A DNA stretch of 64,000 nt, taken from IMG/VR virus record IMGVR_UViG_2875555210_000001. One strand, given 5' to 3'. Made by a program: the position numbers and the translations under genes. Source of the stretch: a virus. Taxonomy: Duplodnaviria; Caudoviricetes. Below the pieces are notes generated by a model. It saw only the letters and a list, made by a program, of their open reading frames with translations. It did not search any database and was not told the origin of the DNA. Shown piece after piece: positions 7,696 through 55,087 of the stretch (position 1 is the first letter of the stretch; each line of letters starts with the position of its first letter).

Positions 7696-7985
7696 GAGTC
7701 CTTATCCCCGAAAAAGTGCTCGTTGTACTTAGCCATAAACGCGTTCCACACCTGCACAGGCTGAGGATCGAACAGCTCCATAGCGCGGTCATAGTCATCG
7801 CCGAAGATGATGCGCTGAGCCTCTTCCTCGGTCGTGGCCTTGATCAGCGCATTCGCCTGCTTCTTAGTCGGGTTCTTAACAACCAGACCAGGCGCAACAG
7901 GCAGCGGATCAGGCACCCGCACCGACGCAATCAGATCAGCAAACACAGTCCCGACCAGCTCGTCCAGCACCTTGTTTTCTTCCAT
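7686..7985 (-). CDS. Tail assembly chaperone (gpG-like)
   Basis: 99 aa between major tail and TMP; ends G GGA AAG TAA. Confidence 0.85.
   Translation of the reverse strand: MEENKVLDELVGTVFADLIASVRVPDPLPVAPGLVVKNPTKKQANALIKATTEEEAQRIIFGDDYDRAMELFDPQPVQVWNAFMAKYNEHFFGDKDSGK
7689..7695 (-). other. Programmed -1 ribosomal frameshift slippery site GGGAAAG
   Basis: X XXY YYZ heptamer just before the gpG stop; -1 frame continues. Confidence 0.85.
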
Positions 7986-8073
7986 AAGATTCTTTCCCCC
8001 TTAGATAATTCAGACAACAAAGGGAGAGGGGAGCGAACCTAAGCCCGCTCCCCTCATTCCCCCCAAACTGCGA

Positions 8074-8976
8074 CTAAGCAGTAATGGTCACCGTGGCCGT
8101 AGCCGTCAGAGACCCCTTCTTAGCCGTGATCGTCGCGGTACCAGCCGCAACACCGGTCACCAGACCGTTAGCCGAAACGCTCGCCTTAAGCGGATCGCTC
8201 GACTCAAAGGTGCAATCCGGCGTGTAGTTAATGCCGTTGTCACCCTCAACCAGAAGCTGAGCCGTATGGCTCGCGCCCGTAGCCACCGTGACAGTCGGAG
8301 CGTTAGGCGTAATCGTCAGAGCGGTCAGCGCCCGGCCAAAGCCAGCCGTAGCCACAATGTCGCGCCAGCCCGGCCCCGCGAAGCCCTGAGCCACCGAGTA
8401 GCCCACAACATCGTCACGGAACGCCTTAAGCGTCGGCTTGTACTCAATAACGTTGTCGTCGTTGAGCGTCTGGTTATCAACCCGATCCAGCTTCACCTTC
8501 GGCATCAGCCAGTAGACCCAAACCTCACGGTCGTTACGGTCATCCAGGCCAACCAGGATCGCCCGGTAGTAGATGTTCTTCGGCACCTTAGGCGCTTCCA
8601 GAACAATGCCGCCGAACTCAGAAGGCTCGATGTCCGTGAAGTCCTGAGTCCAGATCAGCTCAAGCACGTTGCGCTGGTTCTGGTACATCGAGAAATCGAA
8701 CGTCGTGGTCCGCTTGTTGATAATCGTGCGGATAGGCTCAGGCTCGCCGTAAGCCTCAATATCCTTCGAGTCGAACTCGTTACCGAGCGTAAGACCCGCC
8801 TGCTTCTGGAAATGGCCCACAGACTTGTAGCCAGCAGGAATTTCCAGCGACCCGTCAACGGCAGACTCAAGCGTTAGCGCAGGAGTAGCCGAATACGGAG
8901 CCAGAAGCACGGTAAGGTTCAGAGGCGCAATCGCTAGGTCGGCCTGCGCGTCCTTAATCGTGTAAAAATCCGTCAT
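8074..8976 (-). CDS. Major tail tube protein with C-terminal Ig-like (Big2) domain
   Basis: 300 aa; position; C-terminal ASVSANGLVTGVAAGTATITA. Confidence 0.9.
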   Translation of the reverse strand: MTDFYTIKDAQADLAIAPLNLTVLLAPYSATPALTLESAVDGSLEIPAGYKSVGHFQKQAGLTLGNEFDSKDIEAYGEPEPIRTIINKRTTTFDFSMYQNQRNVLELIWTQDFTDIEPSEFGGIVLEAPKVPKNIYYRAILVGLDDRNDREVWVYWLMPKVKLDRVDNQTLNDDNVIEYKPTLKAFRDDVVGYSVAQGFAGPGWRDIVATAGFGRALTALTITPNAPTVTVATGASHTAQLLVEGDNGINYTPDCTFESSDPLKASVSANGLVTGVAAGTATITAKKGSLTATATVTITA

Positions 8977-9003
8977 ATTAAGTTGTCCTTATTCAATTAT
9001 TCG

Positions 9004-9507
9004 CTAAGGGCTACCCGTCAGCCCATGCCACAAGGCATAAAGAAACTGCTTGTAGTTCTTAGCGGTTTTCATCGACACAGAAACTTGGAACGTCGCCGTG
9101 ACAACGCGGTTGTCGATCCTCTGATTCGGTGTTAGCAATTGCGGCCCGGCCACTTCTTTATCGCAGCGAATCTGCGCCGTGTACCCGTCAGCCATCTTGA
9201 ACTTGTCCCCCTGCATCGGCAGCAGGATCGAACGGACAAAGTTCATAAGCTCCCACGAATCATCGCGCGAGCCAGTAACGGCCATGACCTGCAACTGGCA
9301 CTCATCCTTACGGGCGTCCCAGTCGACCTGGCCCCCCGGCATCCGGAAGAACCACAACGTAGGGTCAGGGTCCGCATTATCAAGCCAGTCGTCAGGCAAC
9401 CAACACCCCGACTCATAATTCGGCAGTAGTTTCGTGAAAATGTCGATAAACAGGTTCTCGATGTTTACGAAATTATTTTCGTACCAATCCGGCAGAACCA
9501 AAGACAT
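9004..9507 (-). CDS. Tail terminator protein
   Basis: 167 aa immediately upstream of major tail; synteny. Confidence 0.7.
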   Translation of the reverse strand: MSLVLPDWYENNFVNIENLFIDIFTKLLPNYESGCWLPDDWLDNADPDPTLWFFRMPGGQVDWDARKDECQLQVMAVTGSRDDSWELMNFVRSILLPMQGDKFKMADGYTAQIRCDKEVAGPQLLTPNQRIDNRVVTATFQVSVSMKTAKNYKQFLYALWHGLTGSP

Positions 9508-27599: not shown

Positions 27600-27932
27600 A
27601 TGGCACCGATCTATGATCGACTCAATTCAGTCGCGCTATCTCTGCATTTCGGATGCGACGAAGAAAGCACCGCAGCGAAGAATCAGCAGGACATCGCCGA
27701 AATGGCATACGACGTGATCAGAGACTTATGGGGTTACGACGTAAGCGACGAACACGCCTTCATAAAGGCAATAATGGACACGTTCGACATGTATGGATAC
27801 CCCGACCTTGAGTCACTTAAGGGTATATCTGAAATGTCGGCGCTGGACATGGCCGATTACATCTTGCAACTGCTACCCACCGATGCGCTCACGCCGAAGC
27901 GGTCTGATACACTATGCGCCGCGCCCCTATAG
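27600..27932 (+). CDS. Hypothetical protein
   Basis: 110 aa; stop overlaps the tRNA-Lys 5' end. Confidence 0.6.
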   Translation: MAPIYDRLNSVALSLHFGCDEESTAAKNQQDIAEMAYDVIRDLWGYDVSDEHAFIKAIMDTFDMYGYPDLESLKGISEMSALDMADYILQLLPTDALTPKRSDTLCAAPL

Positions 27933-27995
27933 CTCAGTTGGTAGAGCAGGAGACTTTTAATCTTCGGGTCCTAGGTTCGATCCCTAGTGGGGGCA
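27923..27995 (+). tRNA. tRNA-Lys(TTT)
   Basis: GCCCCTA/TGGGGGC acceptor; anticodon loop CTTTTAA; GGTTCGATCC T arm. Confidence 0.92.
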
Positions 27996-27998
27996 CCC

Positions 27999-28190
27999 AT
28001 GCAGCGCCCTAGAGGCCAATTCCTCATTACCCTCGTCGTCACAACAGACCTGGACGAGTGGATAGAGGACTTTAAGCTAGTCGGCCCCTTATCCGCTAAG
28101 GCATTCATACGCGGACTCGCCGCCGAAGCGGTACAGCACGAAATCGAGAAGCACGGCTACAAGGCCACTATCGAACTTAAGCGGCCATAA
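27999..28190 (+). CDS. Hypothetical protein
   Basis: MQRPRGQFLITL..., 63 aa. Confidence 0.5.
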   Translation: MQRPRGQFLITLVVTTDLDEWIEDFKLVGPLSAKAFIRGLAAEAVQHEIEKHGYKATIELKRP

Positions 28191-28192
28191 AG

Positions 28193-28265
28193 CTCCAACG
28201 GGTGGACTCGAACCACCAACCACGCGATTAACAGTCGCGCGCTCTGCCAATTGAGCTACGGAGGA
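28193..28265 (-). tRNA. tRNA-Asn(GTT), two acceptor-stem mismatches
   Basis: CGCGA-CTGTTAA-TCGCG anticodon arm; canonical D and T arms. Confidence 0.88.
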
Positions 28266-28634
28266 ATAAACATGTGGACCGTCTGGATGAAAGACGCCAT
28301 AGACGACGACCGGATCGTGCTAAGCGACATAAGTCACTACCACGCGGACCGGCTCATGCACAACCTGTTGGGCATCATGCCTGACGCCAATGTATGGATG
28401 GAGGAAGAATGAGCAGCAACCACGACCACGACGACATCGAACCCGGCTGGGCTGGCCTAGGCCGTTTCCTGTGGCCCGTAGGCGTCTACTTCAAGCTCAA
28501 GGGCTGGCTCATGAGCAAGGGCATCATCAAGCCCAACAACTGGGACGATGGCCGCTAACTCATGGTGTCTTGCGATATGCCCTGCCTGCTTACGCACTTA
28601 CCTAGTGCTGCCGGTAGGGCATACCTGCGAAACG

Positions 28635-28706
28635 AGCCGCCACCCAGAATCGAACTGGGATAAGTCGGATTTGCAGTCCGACGCCTAACCACTCAGCCAT
28701 GACGGC
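28635..28706 (-). tRNA. tRNA-Cys(GCA)
   Basis: GCCGTCA/TGGCGGC acceptor, U73, loop CTGCAAA. Confidence 0.9.
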
Positions 28707-28707
28707 A

Positions 28708-29058
28708 CTACCGCTTCTTCCGGCGCTTACCCTCATAGTGCCGGAAGTTTGCGTTACTAAGCTCCTCCACCCTCACCCGAACATGACCCGACCACGGATC
28801 ACGCTCAACCGCAGACTTCGGAACCTCCACAGCCACAACATTCTGGCCGTAACCCTCCTGGCCCTTAGCCGTCTTACTAAAGAACCCATACTGCGAGTTC
28901 TCATCCCGATAAGACTTATCCATGCCAGGCCGGAACTGAGGACGAAACCCACCATCCACAATCGCGCGAGCCGCATCCGCAGAAGTCCGGTGATACAACG
29001 TCACCGTGGACGACCTGGCGCTCACCGGGCCACCGCCACCACCACCGCGACCGCCCAT
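28708..29058 (-). CDS. MGGRG-leader protein with putative ADP-ribosyltransferase-like fold
   Basis: AGGGGG RBS; TLYHRTS...AIVDGGF...GFFS...YG..VVAVEV resembles ART strand motifs. Confidence 0.6.
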   Translation of the reverse strand: MGGRGGGGGGPVSARSSTVTLYHRTSADAARAIVDGGFRPQFRPGMDKSYRDENSQYGFFSKTAKGQEGYGQNVVAVEVPKSAVERDPWSGHVRVRVEELSNANFRHYEGKRRKKR

Positions 29059-29068
29059 GTGGCACCCC

Positions 29069-29758
29069 CTAAGCGTTAACCGCCTTACGGCGCTCATCCC
29101 AGAACGTCGGGAACTCCCGCACAGGTGGCAGGTCCAAACCCTCCACATGCACAAGCCGCCCGTAGCTAAGCAAAATCGCCGGCTCAAGGCGCTCGACCAT
29201 CGCGGCCAGGCCCTCACGGAACAGCGCTTGATCCTCCGGCTTCGCCCGCACGCCGACCGCAGACACAGCCACAGGCCCGCCACGAGGCAGACCCTCGAAG
29301 CAGAAGTCGAACGTGTCTGAGCGTGCCCAGCAGGCCGTAGGAATGACGTTCACGCCGTGGCTCTGCCAGTACGCGCCACACCAACGGGACCGGTACACGT
29401 TCCACAACTGCGCTGCACGCGGCATATCGCGCCACAAACTGAAATCTGGCGTCAGGGCACCGCCGACCGCTGTAACTCGCCCCAGCGTCCTCTCAGGGCT
29501 CGTAAACGCCGTCTCAAAACGGTAGTCGTCCAAAAAAAAGTGGATCGCCCCGTTCTCCCGAGCTGCACGCTCCCGCTGACGCGGCAGATGCCACGCCCCC
29601 AGGTAATCGGGCACCCAATCGCAACGCTCAAGATCAGGGAAACCAAACGGATTGCTCGACGGGAAGATCGCACGCAGATTCAACGCGTCCATCTTCGCCG
29701 GAGCCTCCGACCAATACTTAGATGACCTCGTGCCGTAAAGGCTAAGCACCTTAGACAC
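29069..29758 (-). CDS. DUF4417 family protein
   Basis: IHFFLDDYRFE, TPDFSLWRDMP, WNVYRSRWCGAYWQ.HGVNVIPT motifs. Confidence 0.85.
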   Translation of the reverse strand: MSKVLSLYGTRSSKYWSEAPAKMDALNLRAIFPSSNPFGFPDLERCDWVPDYLGAWHLPRQRERAARENGAIHFFLDDYRFETAFTSPERTLGRVTAVGGALTPDFSLWRDMPRAAQLWNVYRSRWCGAYWQSHGVNVIPTACWARSDTFDFCFEGLPRGGPVAVSAVGVRAKPEDQALFREGLAAMVERLEPAILLSYGRLVHVEGLDLPPVREFPTFWDERRKAVNA

Positions 29759-29800
29759 GGACCACCCCCAAGTAAGTCAGCATGAGTACGTTTTCATGAG

Positions 29801-29889
29801 CGGAGAGCAGAGGGATCGAACCCCAAGCTCCATAACGGCTACCCGGCTTTCAAGGCCGGTCGCGGGCCACCCCCGCTGCATTACTCTCC
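29801..29889 (-). tRNA. tRNA-Ser(TGA), atypical 8/4-like cloverleaf
   Basis: CCGGC-CTTGAAA-GCCGG anticodon arm; long variable arm; G73. Confidence 0.8.
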
Positions 29890-29890
29890 G

Positions 29891-29966
29891 TGGTACCCCG
29901 TACAGGACTTGAACCTGTGACCCGCCGATTAAGAGTCGGCTGCTCTACCAACTGAGCTAACGAGGC
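29891..29966 (-). tRNA. tRNA-Lys(CTT)
   Basis: Canonical cloverleaf; loop CTCTTAA; encoded CCA. Confidence 0.95.
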
Positions 29967-30077
29967 AAGGCGTAGTCAATGCACCGCCACGCTTCCCCGT
30001 AGGGGGACAGGCCCGCCGCCTGGTCACCGACTACGCATAAGTGACCGCAGCTTTCAAAGTCCTAGCGATGCAAAGAG

Positions 30078-30151
30078 TGTGCTAGACAGGAATCGAACCC
30101 GCGAAATCCTGATTGGAAGTCAGGCACCCAGCCAACATGGGTTACTAGCAC
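30078..30151 (-). tRNA. tRNA-Gly(TCC)
   Basis: GTGCTAG/CTAGCAC acceptor; CCTGA-CTTCCAA-TCAGG. Confidence 0.85.
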
Positions 30152-30218
30152 GAGAGCTGGCAGTTGTTTAACGTCGCACCAGCAGACGAGTACAGCAGCT
30201 CCGTACGCGAGCCGCCCG

Positions 30219-30293
30219 CTGACCACCCCGGAATCGAACCTGGAACCTCCGGAGTCAGATTCCGGCGCAACTGCCTAATTGTGCTAGCGGTCA
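30219..30293 (-). tRNA. tRNA-Gln(CTG)
   Basis: TGACCGC/GTGGTCA acceptor; CCGGA-ATCTGAC-TCCGG. Confidence 0.85.
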
Positions 30294-30294
30294 A

Positions 30295-30368
30295 TGGCGA
30301 CAGGCCGGGACTTGCACCCGAATCACCCGAGTCACAGTCGGGGGCTTTGCTACTTAAGCTACCTCGCG
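30295..30368 (-). tRNA. tRNA-His(GTG), irregular acceptor stem and TGCAAGT T loop
   Basis: CCCGA-CTGTGAC-TCGGG anticodon arm; ends CCA. Confidence 0.7.
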
Positions 30369-30442
30369 TGGCCCCCGCGAGACTCGAACTCGCACTGACA
30401 GGTACCTAAAACCTGTGCCTCTGCCAATTGGGCTAGAGGGCC
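30369..30442 (-). tRNA. tRNA-Leu(TAG), short variable loop
   Basis: GGCCCTC/GGGGGCC acceptor; CAGGT-TTTAGGT-ACCTG. Confidence 0.88.
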
Positions 30443-30455
30443 GATAAAATCTGCC

Positions 30456-30647
30456 TTACGTCAACCTGACACGGATGCCCCACACCGCTAAGCAGTGCTT
30501 GGGACCGGGTGGGTAGATCGTCAGCACGCGATCCCATTGCTCGCGGGTTAGGTGCAGGTAGCCGTCGTGATACGCGGGGTGATCAGGTACCCATGTCCAC
30601 GGCTTCTCCAACTCGCCTGCGGCCACGATCTGGTCAACGATGTCCAT
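30456..30647 (-). CDS. Hypothetical protein
   Basis: MDIVDQIVAAG...; GGAGG RBS. Confidence 0.55.
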   Translation of the reverse strand: MDIVDQIVAAGELEKPWTWVPDHPAYHDGYLHLTREQWDRVLTIYPPGPKHCLAVWGIRVRLT

Positions 30648-30833
30648 TCGTTCCTCCACCGCTAATTTCGCGCTACGTAAGGTAGTCCAGCCAGCCAGCC
30701 GGGAACGTGAACTCATGTCCGCACTCAAGCGCAACGGTAACGAGCCAGTCCCTATCCTCACGCAAAGCCTGACTAGTCACAGCTTTCAGGTCGTCGTCAG
30801 GACAGTCTGGGCAATGCTGCGACGGAAGCGTGT

Positions 30834-31193
30834 TCATGGCTTTACCCCAACGTCCGACGCATGGCCCCCGCCCTCAGCGTTGCCATGCCACAGCCGACCA
30901 GGACGCACGTCCTCCTCGACATAAGGCGTGTCAGGGCTAATCAGCTCGCCACACACGCACTTAATCGGGTACTCGACCGGCTCAGGCTTCGTCGGAATCG
31001 CTGTAATCATCAATCCCTCATCAGCCAATGCGCTAAGGAGCGCCTGGCCTCGAGCAATGTTGTTCAGCCGATGAATGACCGCTACGACCTCCTGGTCGTA
31101 GATGCCGTACGCGGACTGGACCGGCGTCTCCCACGCGGCCATCATCGCAATGTGGCCGTACTTGGCTAGGGCGTCGTCTCTTGCTGCACTCAT
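30834..31193 (-). CDS. Hypothetical protein
   Basis: MSAARDDALAKYG...; starts just downstream of tRNA-Trp. Confidence 0.55.
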   Translation of the reverse strand: MSAARDDALAKYGHIAMMAAWETPVQSAYGIYDQEVVAVIHRLNNIARGQALLSALADEGLMITAIPTKPEPVEYPIKCVCGELISPDTPYVEEDVRPGRLWHGNAEGGGHASDVGVKP

Positions 31194-31226
31194 GAGCATC
31201 ACCGTACACGGCATGTATGCCATTTG

Positions 31227-31299
31227 CAACCCGACCCCGACTTGAACGGGGAACCTGCGGCTTTGGAGACCGCTGCTCTACCAATTGAGCTACCGAGCT
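31227..31299 (-). tRNA. tRNA-Trp(CCA)
   Basis: Loop CTCCAAA; canonical arms; G73. Confidence 0.92.
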
Positions 31300-31507
31300 A
31301 TAGGGCTATACCGGAGACAGCGCCCAACCTGTTCATCTACGTGCATCACCGCAACCAACACCAACCCCCATCGTGATGCCCGCTCTCCTAGCCGTTCAGT
31401 CGGTGGACTAACCGAAGGGGCCGCACGCCGTGAGGCGGGGTAATCCCTTTAAGCAGGTGCGGGACCGTATAATCTATCCCACCTTAAGCGGTTCGTAACC
31501 TGCATCG

Positions 31508-31581
31508 TCTGGCTGGCAGGATTTGAACCTGCAACCCCTGGCACCCAAAGCCAGCGCTCTACCAAATTGAGCTACAGCCAG
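31508..31581 (-). tRNA. tRNA-Pro(TGG)
   Basis: CTGGCTG/CAGCCAG acceptor; loop TTTGGGT. Confidence 0.93.
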
Positions 31582-31817
31582 ATCGCATTGCCGGTTTGAG
31601 GATGCTCAACCCAGAGAGCATAGCCTTGGCAATGACTGTTGAAACTTACGCGTTACCGACCTTCGCGGGCTTCTTAGCCTGCTCAGGAATTTCGGCCTTA
31701 GGCCACGCCTTGCGGTCCCGAAGTTCCTGCACCCAACCAAGCTCATCCCGGCCAACCTGAATCGGATCAACCTCAACCGGATCAGAAATCAAACCCACAA
31801 TAATCTCCTCTATTTAG

Positions 31818-32063
31818 TTATACACGCGGAGGCCAATTCCAAAACCCCGCCTGCGGAACAGGTGACCACGGCACCCACTCATCAAAGAACAGTCCAGTCG
31901 GACTCAACACCGCCAATGACACCACCGCCGCATTACTGGACTCAGGGTCCACGTCAACCGCAGTAATGATTGCCGCACGCGGCACCAACGGATACTCACC
32001 CTCAGGCGTGCTATACGCCTGATAATGCACTACACGCCCAACCGTGGGCTTCTGCTCACTCAC
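31818..32063 (-). CDS. Phage hypothetical protein (PTVGRVVHY...WNWPPRV)
   Basis: Recognisable small phage family motif. Confidence 0.75.
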   Translation of the reverse strand: MSEQKPTVGRVVHYQAYSTPEGEYPLVPRAAIITAVDVDPESSNAAVVSLAVLSPTGLFFDEWVPWSPVPQAGFWNWPPRV

Positions 32064-32064
32064 G

Positions 32065-32137
32065 AGCCACCTAGCGGAGTCGAACCGCTGACCTGCGCGT
32101 TACGAAGGCGCTGCTCTACCAACTGAGCTAAGGTGGC
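32065..32137 (-). tRNA. tRNA-Thr(CGT)
   Basis: GCCACCT/AGGTGGC acceptor; loop TTCGTAA. Confidence 0.9.
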
Positions 32138-53304: not shown

Positions 53305-53349
53305 AAAAAACCGCCCCCGGTTAGTCAGCTAGACTGGACCGGGAGCGGT
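53305..53349 (-). terminator. Intrinsic terminator closing the DUF2828/ncRNA unit
   Basis: ACCGCTCCCGGT...ACCGGGGGCGGT stem followed by a T run on the minus strand. Confidence 0.8.
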
Positions 53350-53361
53350 ATTGCGCGGCGG

Positions 53362-53421
53362 AACTGGTCACATTTGTTATCTATTCAGTGGAAGATGTTT
53401 TAGTTGCTGTTAGTGACCACA
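53362..53421 (-). ncRNA. ACAGCAA hairpin RNA unit 3
   Basis: UGGUCAC/GUGACCA terminal stem; UAACAGCAACUAAAAC motif. Confidence 0.65.
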
Positions 53422-53428
53422 GCCGCTT

Positions 53429-53555
53429 AACTGGACTCCGTTTTTTGCATACGCGCTCTGCCCTTAAGCTACAGCGACACAGGGCCGCTACTGGGACTCG
53501 AACCCAGACCTCGCCATTAACAGTGGAAGCGTTGTAATTGCTGTAGGAGTCCACA
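53429..53555 (-). ncRNA. ACAGCAA hairpin RNA unit 2 with circularly permuted tRNA-like (YrlA-like) domain
   Basis: UGGACUCC/GGAGUCCA stem enclosing anticodon-like loop CUGUUAA, T arm CUGGG-UUCGAGU-CCCAG, looped acceptor UAGCGGC/GUCGCUG, then D arm. Confidence 0.8.
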
Positions 53556-53561
53556 CGTTTT

Positions 53562-53617
53562 AACTGGACGCATTTCTTTGTTATCCGCAACAGTTTTAAT
53601 TGCTGTTAGCGTCCACA
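53562..53617 (-). ncRNA. ACAGCAA hairpin RNA unit 1
   Basis: UGGACGC/GCGUCCA stem; UAACAGCAAUUAAAAC motif. Confidence 0.65.
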
Positions 53618-53656
53618 AGTTTTACGATACCGGGCGGCACCCGGCATTCGGAAACA

Positions 53657-55087
53657 TTAGGAACCGTAAACGTTGATCTGCGAGTACCGCTCGCTATTGA
53701 TCACGTCATTTACCAGCTCACGAGGCGTCTTACCCTCCACAGCCATGCCGAAAGTCGTAGCCGCCAAGCCAGACACCAGCGTCACGTTCCCGTCAAGGAT
53801 CGTGGCCGGGAGCTGATCATGGCGCGCGTTGACGTTCCAGAACACAACGTGCGGCAGCTCAAGGCCCGCCCTCTGGAAGTCCAGCTTGGCCGACTCAAAC
53901 ACGCTCAGGTCGGCGCGGTTGAGCGCCTGATTGAACTGCATGTCCGACACGACGTAGAGCGTGGCCGGGACGGTGCCCGACTGCTTACCGGCCCGCAGGA
54001 TCGCCTTGAACGCCGCCTCCAAGTCCGTCGACCCACACCAGCCAGTCGAGTGCTCGATAGCGTGAAGCTTCTGCTCCAACGTCTTACCGGTCACCTGCAC
54101 CAGCTCCGGCGTAGAGGCAAACGTCATGAAGTAGCCCTTATACGGCCCTGTGTTGCGCTCTGCGAAGTACAAAGCCAGCGACACAGACACGGACATAGGC
54201 CGACCCCACATGGACCCTGAAACGTCCGCCAGAACGATCGCGTCCTGGCCGGGGCGCGTGTAGTCCGGCAGGTTGTTCCAGAGCGTGTTAGCCGCAGCCG
54301 CATCGCCGCCCCGCACCATGTCGTACAGCTCGTACGGATACAGGGTCGACGTGTTCACCTTGGCCTCGCCACGGTCAACCGCGTCTAGGAACGCCTGGTA
54401 CCGCTCACCGTCGTTGCGCCGGAACGCCTTAACGTGCTTACGGTGCGCCTGCGCCGGGAGCTTGCTGTAGTCGACGTTCGCGTAAACGCCCTCCGACATA
54501 GCGTGCTCAAGCAGGTCGATACGACCCCGCAGCGCGCTAAGCGTCTGGCGGTACTCACGCTGAGTCAGACCCAGCATTTCGCGGACCTCGATAGCCAACT
54601 CCAAGTTGGACCGGCTCTTATCGGACGGCAGCCACTTAGCCAACAGTGACACCTTCTCGCCACGCTCGTAGGCCGCAACGTCGGCGGTCCACTGCGCAGT
54701 GATCAGGTCGCGGATCGGCCCCCAATTGACTGGCCCAGCGGCGAACAAGTCGTCCCAACGCCCGTACGTCGGAATGTGCTCAACGACGCGCGACAGCTTG
54801 GCTGCCGACAAGGCACCCAGCCGCTTAATGCCCGCGCGGAACACGTCACGCTCCCCCTGGCCCCCGCGCACATCACGCAGATAGAACAGGGTCCGCACCG
54901 CAGCCTGCGGGTCAACGCGGAACGCCTTCTCAAACAGATCAGCGCTCGCCTCGGCGCGGTCACGCATAGCGCCCGCCAAACCGAAGTAATCGACCACTGG
55001 ATCAAGCGACGACTTATGCGCCTTATCGCCGTTCTCCGTGCGAGTCGTGTTGAGCTGGCCGCTTAGGCTCTGCAAAAACGTCGTCAT
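53657..55087 (-). CDS. DUF2828 / TROVE(Ro60)-like protein with C-terminal vWA domain
   Basis: TENGD, LRDVRGGQGER, YGRWDDL, LLAKWLP, MIDAS ADVSGSM, STDL, VSDMQF, FWNV; AAGGAG RBS. Confidence 0.88.
   Translation of the reverse strand: MTTFLQSLSGQLNTTRTENGDKAHKSSLDPVVDYFGLAGAMRDRAEASADLFEKAFRVDPQAAVRTLFYLRDVRGGQGERDVFRAGIKRLGALSAAKLSRVVEHIPTYGRWDDLFAAGPVNWGPIRDLITAQWTADVAAYERGEKVSLLAKWLPSDKSRSNLELAIEVREMLGLTQREYRQTLSALRGRIDLLEHAMSEGVYANVDYSKLPAQAHRKHVKAFRRNDGERYQAFLDAVDRGEAKVNTSTLYPYELYDMVRGGDAAAANTLWNNLPDYTRPGQDAIVLADVSGSMWGRPMSVSVSLALYFAERNTGPYKGYFMTFASTPELVQVTGKTLEQKLHAIEHSTGWCGSTDLEAAFKAILRAGKQSGTVPATLYVVSDMQFNQALNRADLSVFESAKLDFQRAGLELPHVVFWNVNARHDQLPATILDGNVTLVSGLAATTFGMAVEGKTPRELVNDVINSERYSQINVYGS

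Follow-up and report, generated by a model that had tools for sequence, protein, structure and literature searches.

In a 64,000-nt stretch of viral DNA (Caudoviricetes; IMG/VR record IMGVR_UViG_2875555210_000001), here called the window, a gene encoding a DUF2828 protein is followed on the same strand by three small elements, each built of a closing stem and a single-stranded ACAGCAA motif. This locus raises the question of whether these elements, hereafter units, are RNAs and, if so, whether they belong to the neighbouring protein as Y RNAs belong to Ro60. We found that the units are members of a widespread phage RNA family that has a covarying stem, is strand-specific and co-occurs tightly with the DUF2828 gene. 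Our preferred reading, to which we give a probability of roughly 0.6, is that the units are Y-RNA-like partners of a Ro60-like DUF2828 protein, which would recognize them by a different handle. This reading is based on the co-occurrence of RNA and gene and on the analogy with Ro60 and Y RNA.

Three stem-ACAGCAA units behind a DUF2828 gene

On the minus strand of the window, the gene for the protein with DUF2828 and DUF7788 domains (53657..55087, an ATG-started open reading frame (ORF) of 476 amino acids with Pfam and PHROG matches) is directly followed by unit 1 (53562..53618), unit 2 (53429..53556) and unit 3 (53362..53422) and then by a strong intrinsic terminator (53305..53349). The first-pass annotation, made from the letters alone, had described three minus-strand units between this gene and a terminator; all of its sequence details were present, and its unit coordinates were correct within 1-2 nt. 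The two short units, 1 and 3, were identified by direct reading of the sequence, by a stem finder and by the two covariance models described below (R1 and R2). The long unit 2 was likewise identified by direct reading and by the stem finder, and further by a full-length R2 match and by a sub-threshold match to the Rfam family YrlA.

Read on the minus strand, unit 1 is UGUGGACGC-UA-ACAGCAA-UUAAAAC...GCGUCCAGUU, unit 2 is UGUGGACUCC-U-ACAGCAA-UUACAAC...GGAGUCCAGUU and unit 3 is UGUGGUCAC-UA-ACAGCAA-CUAAAAC...GUGACCAGUU. All three follow one architecture, namely, a closing stem of 7-8 bp, 1-2 nt, the single-stranded ACAGCAA, a variable A/U-rich body, the 3' half of the stem and an unpaired G. As had been noted at first sight, the segment GAUAACAAA is common to units 1 and 3, and CUUCCACUG is common to units 2 and 3. 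According to the stem finder, the units are 51, 122 and 55 nt long and their closing stems comprise 7, 8 and 7 bp, respectively; the stems GGACGC/GCGUCC of unit 1 and GGUCAC/GUGACC of unit 3 are both extendable to 7 bp. The claim that these stems are perfectly paired and covary was borne out, in the window by the pairing itself and elsewhere by the covariation in 57 further units. The body of unit 2 forms a permuted tRNA-like domain, with a T arm (CUGGGUUCGAGUCCCAG), a closed acceptor-like hairpin and a D arm (UAGCUUAAGGGCAGAGC). GC content over the units is 0.44-0.47 compared with 0.57-0.69 in the flanks; per unit, it is 0.38-0.40 in both short units and 0.54 in unit 2, again compared with 0.57-0.69 for the region. 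The minimum-free-energy folds of all three units retain the closing stem. The single-sequence fold z-scores were weak (−1.73, −0.53 and −0.14), indicating that the fold alone is insufficient and that comparative evidence is needed.

In the terminator, a G+C-rich stem of 12 bp encloses an inner hairpin and precedes a U6 tract. Its fold (−32.7 kcal/mol, z −5.04) was matched in stability by none of 200 shuffled sequences, in keeping with the 'clean' terminator of the first-pass annotation, and a simple terminator scan recovered its inner part at 53322-53309. A promoter scan of the window found no sigma-70-like promoter between the DUF2828 gene and the units. Judged by its sequence, the terminator closes a transcription unit common to the gene and the RNAs.

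The window corresponds to positions 3,632,971-3,696,970 of a 6.9 Mb single-contig bacterial genome. The region around the DUF2828 gene matched 95 Mycobacterium phage records of the subfamily Lclasvirinae, the best being phage Tourach (90.8% identity), and the window therefore represents such a prophage. In Tourach, the 378-nt gap with the units is without annotation. Some cluster L records, namely, Zakai, Gardann and Wilder, carry a tRNA-Thr or tRNA-Asn label on the tRNA-like body of the long unit, probably a mis-annotation, and others have no annotation there. Units are present in deposited genomes either without annotation or mis-called as tRNAs. An Rfam scan of the window at gathering thresholds returned only the region of the 12-tRNA cluster of the prophage (27923-32137, 21 kb from the units) and nothing on the units. 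This cluster contains two tRNAs for Lys and one each for Asn, Cys, Ser, Gly, Gln, His, Leu, Trp, Pro and Thr.

A covarying RNA family in phages of many hosts

Among the first six phage records examined, the stem-ACAGCAA architecture was found beside the DUF2828 gene in five. The Mycobacterium phages Nicholas and Appletree2 carry such units beside the gene, and Listeria phage P200 has three units just upstream of it. The units lie among tRNAs both in Bacillus phage Nate, upstream of the gene, and in E. coli phage EC6, downstream of it. In these five phages, 0-2 nt separate a stem of 7-9 bp from ACAGCAA, after which come a variable body and the 3' arm. Short units are present in each of the five loci, and in four of them a long unit with tRNA-like arms stands beside the short ones; the third unit of P200 is long and lacks a T loop. 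The sixth record, cyanophage B3, has units with the variant motifs UCAGCAA and UCAGCCA.

A set of 80 viral loci (705,072 nt in total) was then fetched through the DUF2828 protein. In these protein-first loci, ACAGCAA occurred 224 times on the gene strand compared with 48 times on the opposite strand, approximately 43 per strand being expected by length. A closing stem of at least 7 bp accompanied 148 of the 224 gene-strand motifs compared with 13 of the 48 opposite-strand ones. For 104 permuted 7-mer controls, the mean was 57 occurrences, 17 (30%) of them with a stem, and the highest-scoring controls were shifted copies of the ACAGCAA motif itself.

From 68 candidate short units, 57 spanning 50-66 nt were kept for a seed alignment. 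The other 11 were dropped by eye as misaligned, chance-like or having atypical stems (L019:3866, L021:5709, L038:1171, L043:850, L043:3362, L047:3652, L049:403, L068:3861, L068:3925, L070:3851 and L084:5526; locus and position). Stem pairing in the 57 units amounted to 92.5%, compared with 65.6% in shuffles and 31-44% with the partners slid, the first figure being inflated because the units were picked for having a stem; the strand and control contrasts are thus the cleaner evidence. Cells with a change on both sides of a pair numbered 127, compared with 37 in shuffles. Seven stem pairs covary heavily, an eighth is paired in about half of the units, and the compensatory changes include G-U pairs.

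The covariance model R1 (7 bp, 67 positions) was built from the 57 short units, all from loci other than the window. In the window, it matched unit 1 with 50.0 bits (E 6e-09), unit 3 with 44.9 bits and unit 2 with 20.7 bits. Over the whole 6.9 Mb genome at E≤1, the two short units were its sole matches. On the 80 protein-first loci, R1 gave 113 matches at E≤0.01, all on the gene strand, in 53 loci. None of them was inside the DUF2828 gene and 81 were within 500 nt of it. The upstream side accounted for 76 (median distance 198 nt) and the downstream side for 37 (median distance 141 nt). In 19 of these matches, the motif was a variant, for example, GCAGCAA, UCAGCAA, CCAGCAA or ACAGCGA. R2, rebuilt from the R1 matches, gave 49.5 bits for unit 1, 44.4 bits for unit 3 and 29.6 bits for unit 2, the last over its full length (53429-53556); with both strands searched, each model had exactly three matches in the 64-kb window. 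On the 80 loci, R2 found 161 matches, again all on the gene strand, in 63 loci (counted by hand), consistent with the first-pass expectation that ACAGCAA hairpins would be found near DUF2828 homologues elsewhere.

The consensus of 107 distinct matches is 5' W-R-G-R-C-N-C-(N)-N-N-A-CAGCAA-W-Y-W-W-A ... A-run ... G-N-G-Y-C-Y-W-G. CAG is invariant in all 107, the C, A and A after it recur in 106, 105 and 103, respectively, and 106 have the unpaired G after the 3' arm. The conserved module is therefore a 7-8 bp helix (5' WRGRC.../...GYCYW 3') with (A)CAGCAA on one side and an A-rich strand plus the unpaired G on the other. On the units, every Rfam family stays below its gathering score. In the literature searched (mostly non-subscription articles), no paper linking DUF2828 to RNA was found.

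The link between RNA and gene was also approached from the RNA side. In four complete phage genomes (P200, EC6, Nate and B3; 633 kb), all 11 R1 matches at E≤0.1 lie within approximately 2.7 kb of the DUF2828 gene. A search with a pattern defined by the RNA alone, a single common stem type together with the motif, yielded 108 IMG/VR stretches, for which 80 loci were listed. DUF2828 was present in the fetched stretch of 32 of these RNA-first loci, in every case on the strand of the RNA, with a median of 113 nt between the two. For the 48 loci without a protein match, 46 contigs were searched whole (L104, on the same contig as L096, and L093 were left out), and 30 of them proved to encode DUF2828. 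Among RNA-first contigs at least 90% complete, 17 of 18 encode the protein. The 16 negative contigs comprise 14 fragments (2-51% complete), one contig 70% complete and one complete genome, G044. Moreover, the host genus was surveyed in 121 genomes: the same two were matched by R2 (at E≤1e-3) and by the protein profile (at E≤1e-10), and the other 119 have neither. In the second positive genome, three units are present, and the RNA follows the gene, on its strand, at a distance of approximately 1.1 kb. Staphylococcus phage BE02 has three R2 units just downstream of its DUF2828 gene, and Enterococcus phage EFDG1 has two upstream. The link between the DUF2828 gene and stem-ACAGCAA RNAs across phages of many hosts is thus strongly supported. 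When 1632 ORFs were clustered, no conserved protein-coding neighbour was found beyond 11 of 80 loci. An ORF cluster from 39 loci was rejected as a partner gene because it consists of antisense ORFs inside the DUF2828 gene.

According to its sequence, the RNA family reaches viruses of eukaryotes. Locus L093 (1-900 on the minus strand and 7715-9244) holds three units with R2 scores of 43.8-46.1 bits, which alternate with tRNA-Leu, tRNA-Arg and an intron-containing tRNA-Ile, and a second giant-virus-like contig (L219, L220) has the same unit/tRNA array. The L093 contig, which came from the RNA-first search, is a nucleocytoplasmic large DNA virus (NCLDV) contig: besides a major capsid protein (161 and 138.7 bits), it encodes an AP2-HNH endonuclease and RNA polymerase subunits of eukaryotic type (Rpb5 and Rpb3/11-like).

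Direct reading of the sequences together with folds distinguished three topologies. In the first, the units are short and stand alone. In the second, a permuted tRNA-like domain, in which a closed acceptor-like hairpin stands between the T arm and the D arm, is closed by the module, as in YrlA; some units show a variant with the order D arm, anticodon-like arm and T arm. In the third, found in cyanophage-like loci, a tRNA-like molecule with a normal acceptor stem carries a permuted module at the position of the anticodon arm, in the order A-run, 3' arm, small loop, 5' arm, NN and AC(A/U)GCAA. An example is the 110-nt element L003:3866-3975 of Synechococcus phage B3, annotated as 'tRNA-Pseudo-GCA', and similar elements are present in L031, L034, L047 and L051. 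The three topologies indicate that the conserved object is a helix end flanked by an ACAGCAA strand and an A-rich strand and that free ends are not required. This is what a protein-binding module would be expected to look like.

Several loci with units have further RNA features. Cyanophage-like L021, L024, L028 and L031 contain 19-26 tRNAs (ARAGORN) per 6.5-9.5 kb locus, an unusually dense array that is interleaved with UCAGCAA-type units. In P200, a match to ROOL RNA (L005:468-1019; E 3.7e-16), which at 86 bits falls slightly short of the gathering score of 99.1, sits between tRNA genes approximately 650 nt upstream of the three units. In L048, the region of tRNAs and units that precedes a DUF2828 gene contains two sub-threshold matches to the HDV-like ribozyme family RF02682 (3531-3603 with 32.3 bits and 2349-2404 with 26.8 bits; gathering score 44).

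The DUF2828 protein and the proposed role of the units

The 476-amino-acid protein matches PF11443 (DUF2828) with 93.7 bits (cut-off 29) and PF25043 (DUF7788) with 105.6 bits (cut-off 27.1), along with weak Pfam matches to von Willebrand factor A (vWA) domains. It also matches PHROG 850, 'RNA-binding protein' (E 4e-163). Its gene has 90.8% DNA identity to gene 54 of Mycobacterium phage Tourach, and its relatives in GenBank are labelled 'Ro-like RNA binding protein'. The vWA part carries a complete metal ion-dependent adhesion site (MIDAS) signature, D288, S290, S292, T354 and D382 (D-x-S-x-S, T, D), which is invariant in 48 homologues. A tblastn search with the protein hit 709 of 50,697 phage records, with hosts including Escherichia (120), Mycobacterium (95), Salmonella (77), Vibrio (56), Listeria (54), Staphylococcus (42), Campylobacter (39), Enterococcus (36) and Bacillus (28). 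Some of these phages, including Felix O1-like coliphages, Listeria P100-like phages and phages of Staphylococcus, Enterococcus and Campylobacter, are of interest for therapy or biocontrol. The best matches listed include no eukaryotic DUF2828 homologue, which is no evidence of absence. The sole longer form found is P0121 (1148 amino acids, on a 3.5-kb JGI contig), in which DUF2828/DUF7788 is joined to a RecQ-type helicase with DEAD, Helicase_C, RecQ zinc-binding and HRDC domains.

In the preferred reading, the three units would be co-transcribed with the DUF2828 gene up to the terminator and would be made and processed as RNAs. The junction of the helix and ACAGCAA would be the handle by which the DUF2828 protein, presumably Ro60-like in combining an N-terminal helical part with a vWA/MIDAS domain, binds the units. 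The variable bodies may recruit or mimic other partners, through A/U-rich loops in units 1 and 3 and through the tRNA-like domain in unit 2, and would then work as Y RNA modules do for Ro60. Known cases of such modules are the tRNA-like domain of YrlA and the tether of Yrn1 to PNPase. The particle might protect the tRNAs of phage and host or control their quality, or it might act in counter-defence. Its downstream role may lie in RNA surveillance, in tRNA quality control or in counter-defence as reported for a probable relative. The first-pass interpretation is thus borne out for the association of gene and RNA, whereas the binding by the protein, the loading of cargo and the roles in RNA repair, in decay or as decoys that it proposed are conjectural.

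This probable relative is gp130 of the Felix O1-like phage Bas63. In the PhageMaP preprint, gp130 is described as structurally 'Ro60-like', is encoded directly upstream of a tRNA run and counters the ppl defence (PMC11482910). E. coli phage EC6, which looks related, has its DUF2828 gene in the same position upstream of tRNAs. By the authors' guess, there might be Y RNAs among the 'tRNAs' by gp130; the available text names no RNA motif or family (PMC11482910). Bas63 is not among the 60 of 251 records listed, and gp130 is at most a putative DUF2828 homologue.

Several results weigh against the partner reading. With respect to the protein, the first-pass annotation had called the gene TROVE-like/vWA; the vWA part stands, with its complete MIDAS, whereas TROVE (PF05731) gave no match at E≤10. 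What an hhalign comparison offers in favour of kinship is confined to the vWA domain and of low probability (35%): residues 282-449 aligned with that domain in four mycobacterial TROVE proteins (E 4e-4). A profile search of PDB sequences matched no solved Ro60, the phage Ro60 included. The label 'Ro60-like', and with it the presumed ring of HEAT-like repeats around a central cavity, thus comes from database annotation and from the preprint statement on a probable relative, and the sequence indicates kinship to Ro60 for the vWA/MIDAS domain only. Furthermore, gp130 acts when expressed alone from a plasmid or from T7 (PMC11482910), and its counter-defence therefore seems not to need phage-encoded RNAs.

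With respect to the RNA, the selection of units for their stems inflates the pairing figure, and an R2 match is missing in 17 of the 80 protein-first loci, truncated loci among them; some of the 17 hold variant units by pattern search. A covariance-model search of the flanks of DUF2828 genes, as suggested in the first-pass annotation, found units in many phages, whereas R2 at E≤0.05 found nothing in Campylobacter phage NCTC12673, Vibrio phage XZ1, Sinorhizobium phage phiM7 and Fusobacterium phage Fnu1. When these four phages were searched by pattern, ACAGCAA was accompanied by 8-10 bp stems that differ in sequence, immediately upstream of the gene in NCTC12673 and Fnu1 and 2-2.7 kb upstream of it in phiM7; nothing convincing was seen in XZ1. 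These three are candidates only, on weaker evidence than model matches. Finally, G044 (locus L161; 75 kb, with direct terminal repeats and rated complete) has one unit and no DUF2828 match, and tblastn found no DUF2828 in the fetched pieces of both giant-virus contigs. These arrays are also units without a demonstrated DUF2828 neighbour, and together with G044 they argue against an obligate pairing of RNA and DUF2828.

Such exceptions bear on an alternative that we consider rather unlikely, namely, that the units serve tRNA biology as processing scaffolds or as decoys or mimics for tRNA enzymes or nucleases, the link to DUF2828 then reflecting a shared 'translation/RNA' module. Besides G044 as a unit without DUF2828, it would account for the interleaving of units with tRNA genes in Nate, EC6 and B3, for the module at the anticodon-arm position inside tRNA-like molecules of cyanophage-like loci and for the giant-virus units that alternate with tRNA-Leu, tRNA-Ile and tRNA-Arg, with no DUF2828 in the fetched parts. 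Both units and tRNAs were present in 32 of the 80 loci; however, 21 had units and no tRNA within about 4 kb, 15 had tRNAs only and 12 had neither. In the window, the units abut the gene, whereas the 12 tRNAs are 21 kb off, indicating that the units are not simply linked to tRNA arrays. Moreover, tRNA biology by itself would not lead one to expect DUF2828 in 17 of 18 near-complete RNA contigs, the same 2 of 121 host-genus genomes for RNA and protein, or the position of all matches on the gene strand.

The close spacing of units and gene could alternatively mean that the units are cis-acting parts of the DUF2828 mRNA, such as stabilisers, processing sites or autoregulatory operators, rather than free trans-acting RNAs. 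The shared strand and transcription unit in the window, with no predicted promoter between and one terminator after, and the short distances upstream (76 R1 matches, median 198 nt) or downstream (37, median 141 nt) of the gene agree with this. We nevertheless regard it as improbable, since some units are kilobases away in tRNA arrays or in genomes without the gene. In addition, the unit at L161:960-1100 lies exactly between a promoter-like site (TTGACA-17-TATAGAAT) and an intrinsic terminator of its own, and a promoter-like site also precedes the unit array of L003. The several divergent copies per locus, one with a tRNA-like body, likewise fit trans-acting RNAs better. That the units are DNA-level repeats without RNA function (miniature mobile elements, recombination sites or palindromic protein sites) is scarcely credible: several dispersed copies per locus and arms that form inverted repeats would suit such repeats, but a palindrome would be strand-neutral, whereas the motif (224 vs 48) and the model matches (161 vs 0) are not, the arms diverge between copies with pairing kept, the tRNA-like bodies match an RNA model, and the G-U pairs form only in RNA on the gene strand.

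Under the preferred reading of the units as partners of the protein, the DUF2828 family, which is without a described function or ligand, gains a searchable candidate RNA partner family with a precise, mutable handle. The binding biochemistry is directly testable, and the reading offers a candidate mechanism for the reported counter-defence activity.

Comparison with Class I RNAs and with Ro60 and its Y RNAs

The mechanism of the Class I RNAs of Dictyostelium has been open since their description in 2004. These RNAs are 42-65 nt long, with a short stem joining their ends, an 11-nt motif by the 5' arm, a conserved 5' G that pairs with the C of a 3' CUGU, a GC content of 32-41% and a variable body (Kjellin et al. 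2021, PMC7919456). According to the same paper, they bind the RNA recognition motif (RRM) protein Rnp1A and three other proteins and are held to be unique to Dictyostelia. The Rfam family Dicty_Class_I_RNA (RF01414) has the consensus stem-CCUUACAGCAAUuaAAac, and its 11-nt motif has the consensus CCUUACAGCAA. Of these 11 positions, seven (ACAGCAA) are common to the units, in the same place, and the four preceding bases are not conserved in phages. Units 1 and 3, with 7-bp stems and 51 and 55 nt, fall within the Class I form of an end-joining stem and approximately 42-65 nt. The likeness further includes the bases following the motif, the A-run before the 3' arm, the conserved G-C pair of the stem and the variable A/U-rich body, and the 3' tail is CUGU in Dictyostelium and C-Y-W-G-U in the units. 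It extends to length and low GC content, even in the high-GC genome studied here. The first-pass annotation had overlooked this likeness, as well as the tRNA-like, YrlA-type nature of unit 2 and the lack of a TROVE match in the protein.

The differences are that the units scored only 11-24 bits with RF01414 (gathering score 41.5), which missed most of them, that their hosts are phages and prophages rather than amoebae, and that the known Class I partner is the RRM protein Rnp1A. Class I RNAs are also marked by an upstream DUSE promoter element, which is specific to eukaryotes; the units come from phages, prophages and giant-virus contigs. RF01414 was built from amoeba sequences only. In the window, it gave sub-threshold matches to units 2 and 3 (20.8 and 16.1 bits), and in the whole genomes of P200 and EC6 it ranked units first (23.1, 19.1, 19.7, 16.9 and 14.8 bits). 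In five records searched at E≤1, 6 of 10 matches were units. A further 35 of the 80 loci were searched, hand-picked as non-mycobacterial with model matches and thus not an unbiased sample. At E≤0.1, these gave 10 matches, namely, five R2 units, one ACAGCAA-bearing candidate and four unrelated sequences, about the number expected by chance. Control genomes also give matches at these E-values (3 to 8 of 14). The gathering score was reached in none of the five and none of the 35 records, the best score anywhere being 24.1 bits, and RF01414 did not detect the giant-virus units. By this measure, the units are not members of RF01414. Nonetheless, the resemblance in motif and architecture is real, and homology is possible. 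In the literature searched, no link of Class I RNA to phages, Y RNA or Ro60 was found.

The presence of units in giant viruses makes a route to amoebae conceivable. A broader proposal, which we put forward tentatively and hold to be doubtful, is that stem-ACAGCAA RNAs are cognate DUF2828 ligands that would form a second Ro60/Y-RNA-like lineage, from phages of Actinomycetota, Bacillota, Pseudomonadota and Cyanobacteria to giant viruses. The Class I RNAs would then be its eukaryotic members, either acquired from viral RNAs or recognised like them. If this were true, the Class I RNAs would gain a candidate protein partner and a testable function. In any case, the likeness and the giant-virus units make it possible to ask, in testable form, where this abundant class of eukaryotic RNA came from.

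The closest parallel in organization is provided by bacterial Ro60. Its genes are flanked on the same strand by Y RNAs, in which a terminal helix and an adjacent conserved motif bind Ro60, and at least one Y RNA per species carries a tRNA-like domain (Chen et al. 2014, PMC4201824). In YrlA, the Ro60-binding motif GNCGAA(N)G is near the 5' end, as given in the same paper. A canonical phage Ro60, that of Thermus phage phiLo, binds two adjacently encoded Yrl RNAs with a CGAA motif and assembles with host PNPase (PMC12135203). In our loci, similarly, a vWA protein annotated as Ro-like adjoins several same-strand small RNAs. In each of these RNAs, the two ends pair into a terminal helix and the 5' arm is closely followed by a conserved single-stranded motif, and one RNA per locus has a permuted tRNA-like domain with T and D arms. 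RNA-repair genes are also found near some relatives, for example, an RtcB-type ligase approximately 1.3 kb downstream of DUF2828 in P200.

Unit 2 can be compared with YrlA directly. It matched the Rfam YrlA model (RF02553) at 23.8 bits (E 0.011, gathering score 69), in line with the first-pass expectation of no strong match to an Rfam family. The alignment covers model positions 1-114, with the T arm CUGGGUUCGAGUCCCAG and the D arm UAGCUUAAGGGCAGAGC in register. Equivalent units scored somewhat higher (37.9 bits in Nicholas, 39.8 in Appletree2, 38.2 in L042 and 33.6 in L026). The tRNA-like domain closed by a terminal helix is present in unit 2 and in long units elsewhere; units 1 and 3 are without it. 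In the alignment, ACAGCAA occupies the site of the Ro60-binding GNCGAA. As the first-pass annotation had observed, the motif GNCGAA(N)G is absent from the units, and all three have (U)ACAGCAA after the 5' arm.

The systems differ in other respects as well. The protein here is DUF2828/DUF7788 and not TROVE: no TROVE-domain Ro60 gene lies within about 4 kb of the units, their neighbour being the DUF2828/DUF7788 gene, and no TROVE protein was found anywhere in the host genome at E≤1e-10. The handle is ACAGCAA and not GNCGAA or CGAA, the YrlA scores of 23.8-39.8 bits are well below the gathering score, and most units are much shorter (about 50-70 nt) and lack a second helix. What is new here is thus probably a Ro60/Y-RNA logic carried by a different protein family and a different RNA handle. 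It would widen the Ro60/Y-RNA principle, in which a ring-shaped protein works together with RNAs that combine a handle with a variable or tRNA-like module, to a protein and a motif without detectable sequence relation to Ro60 and its RNAs.

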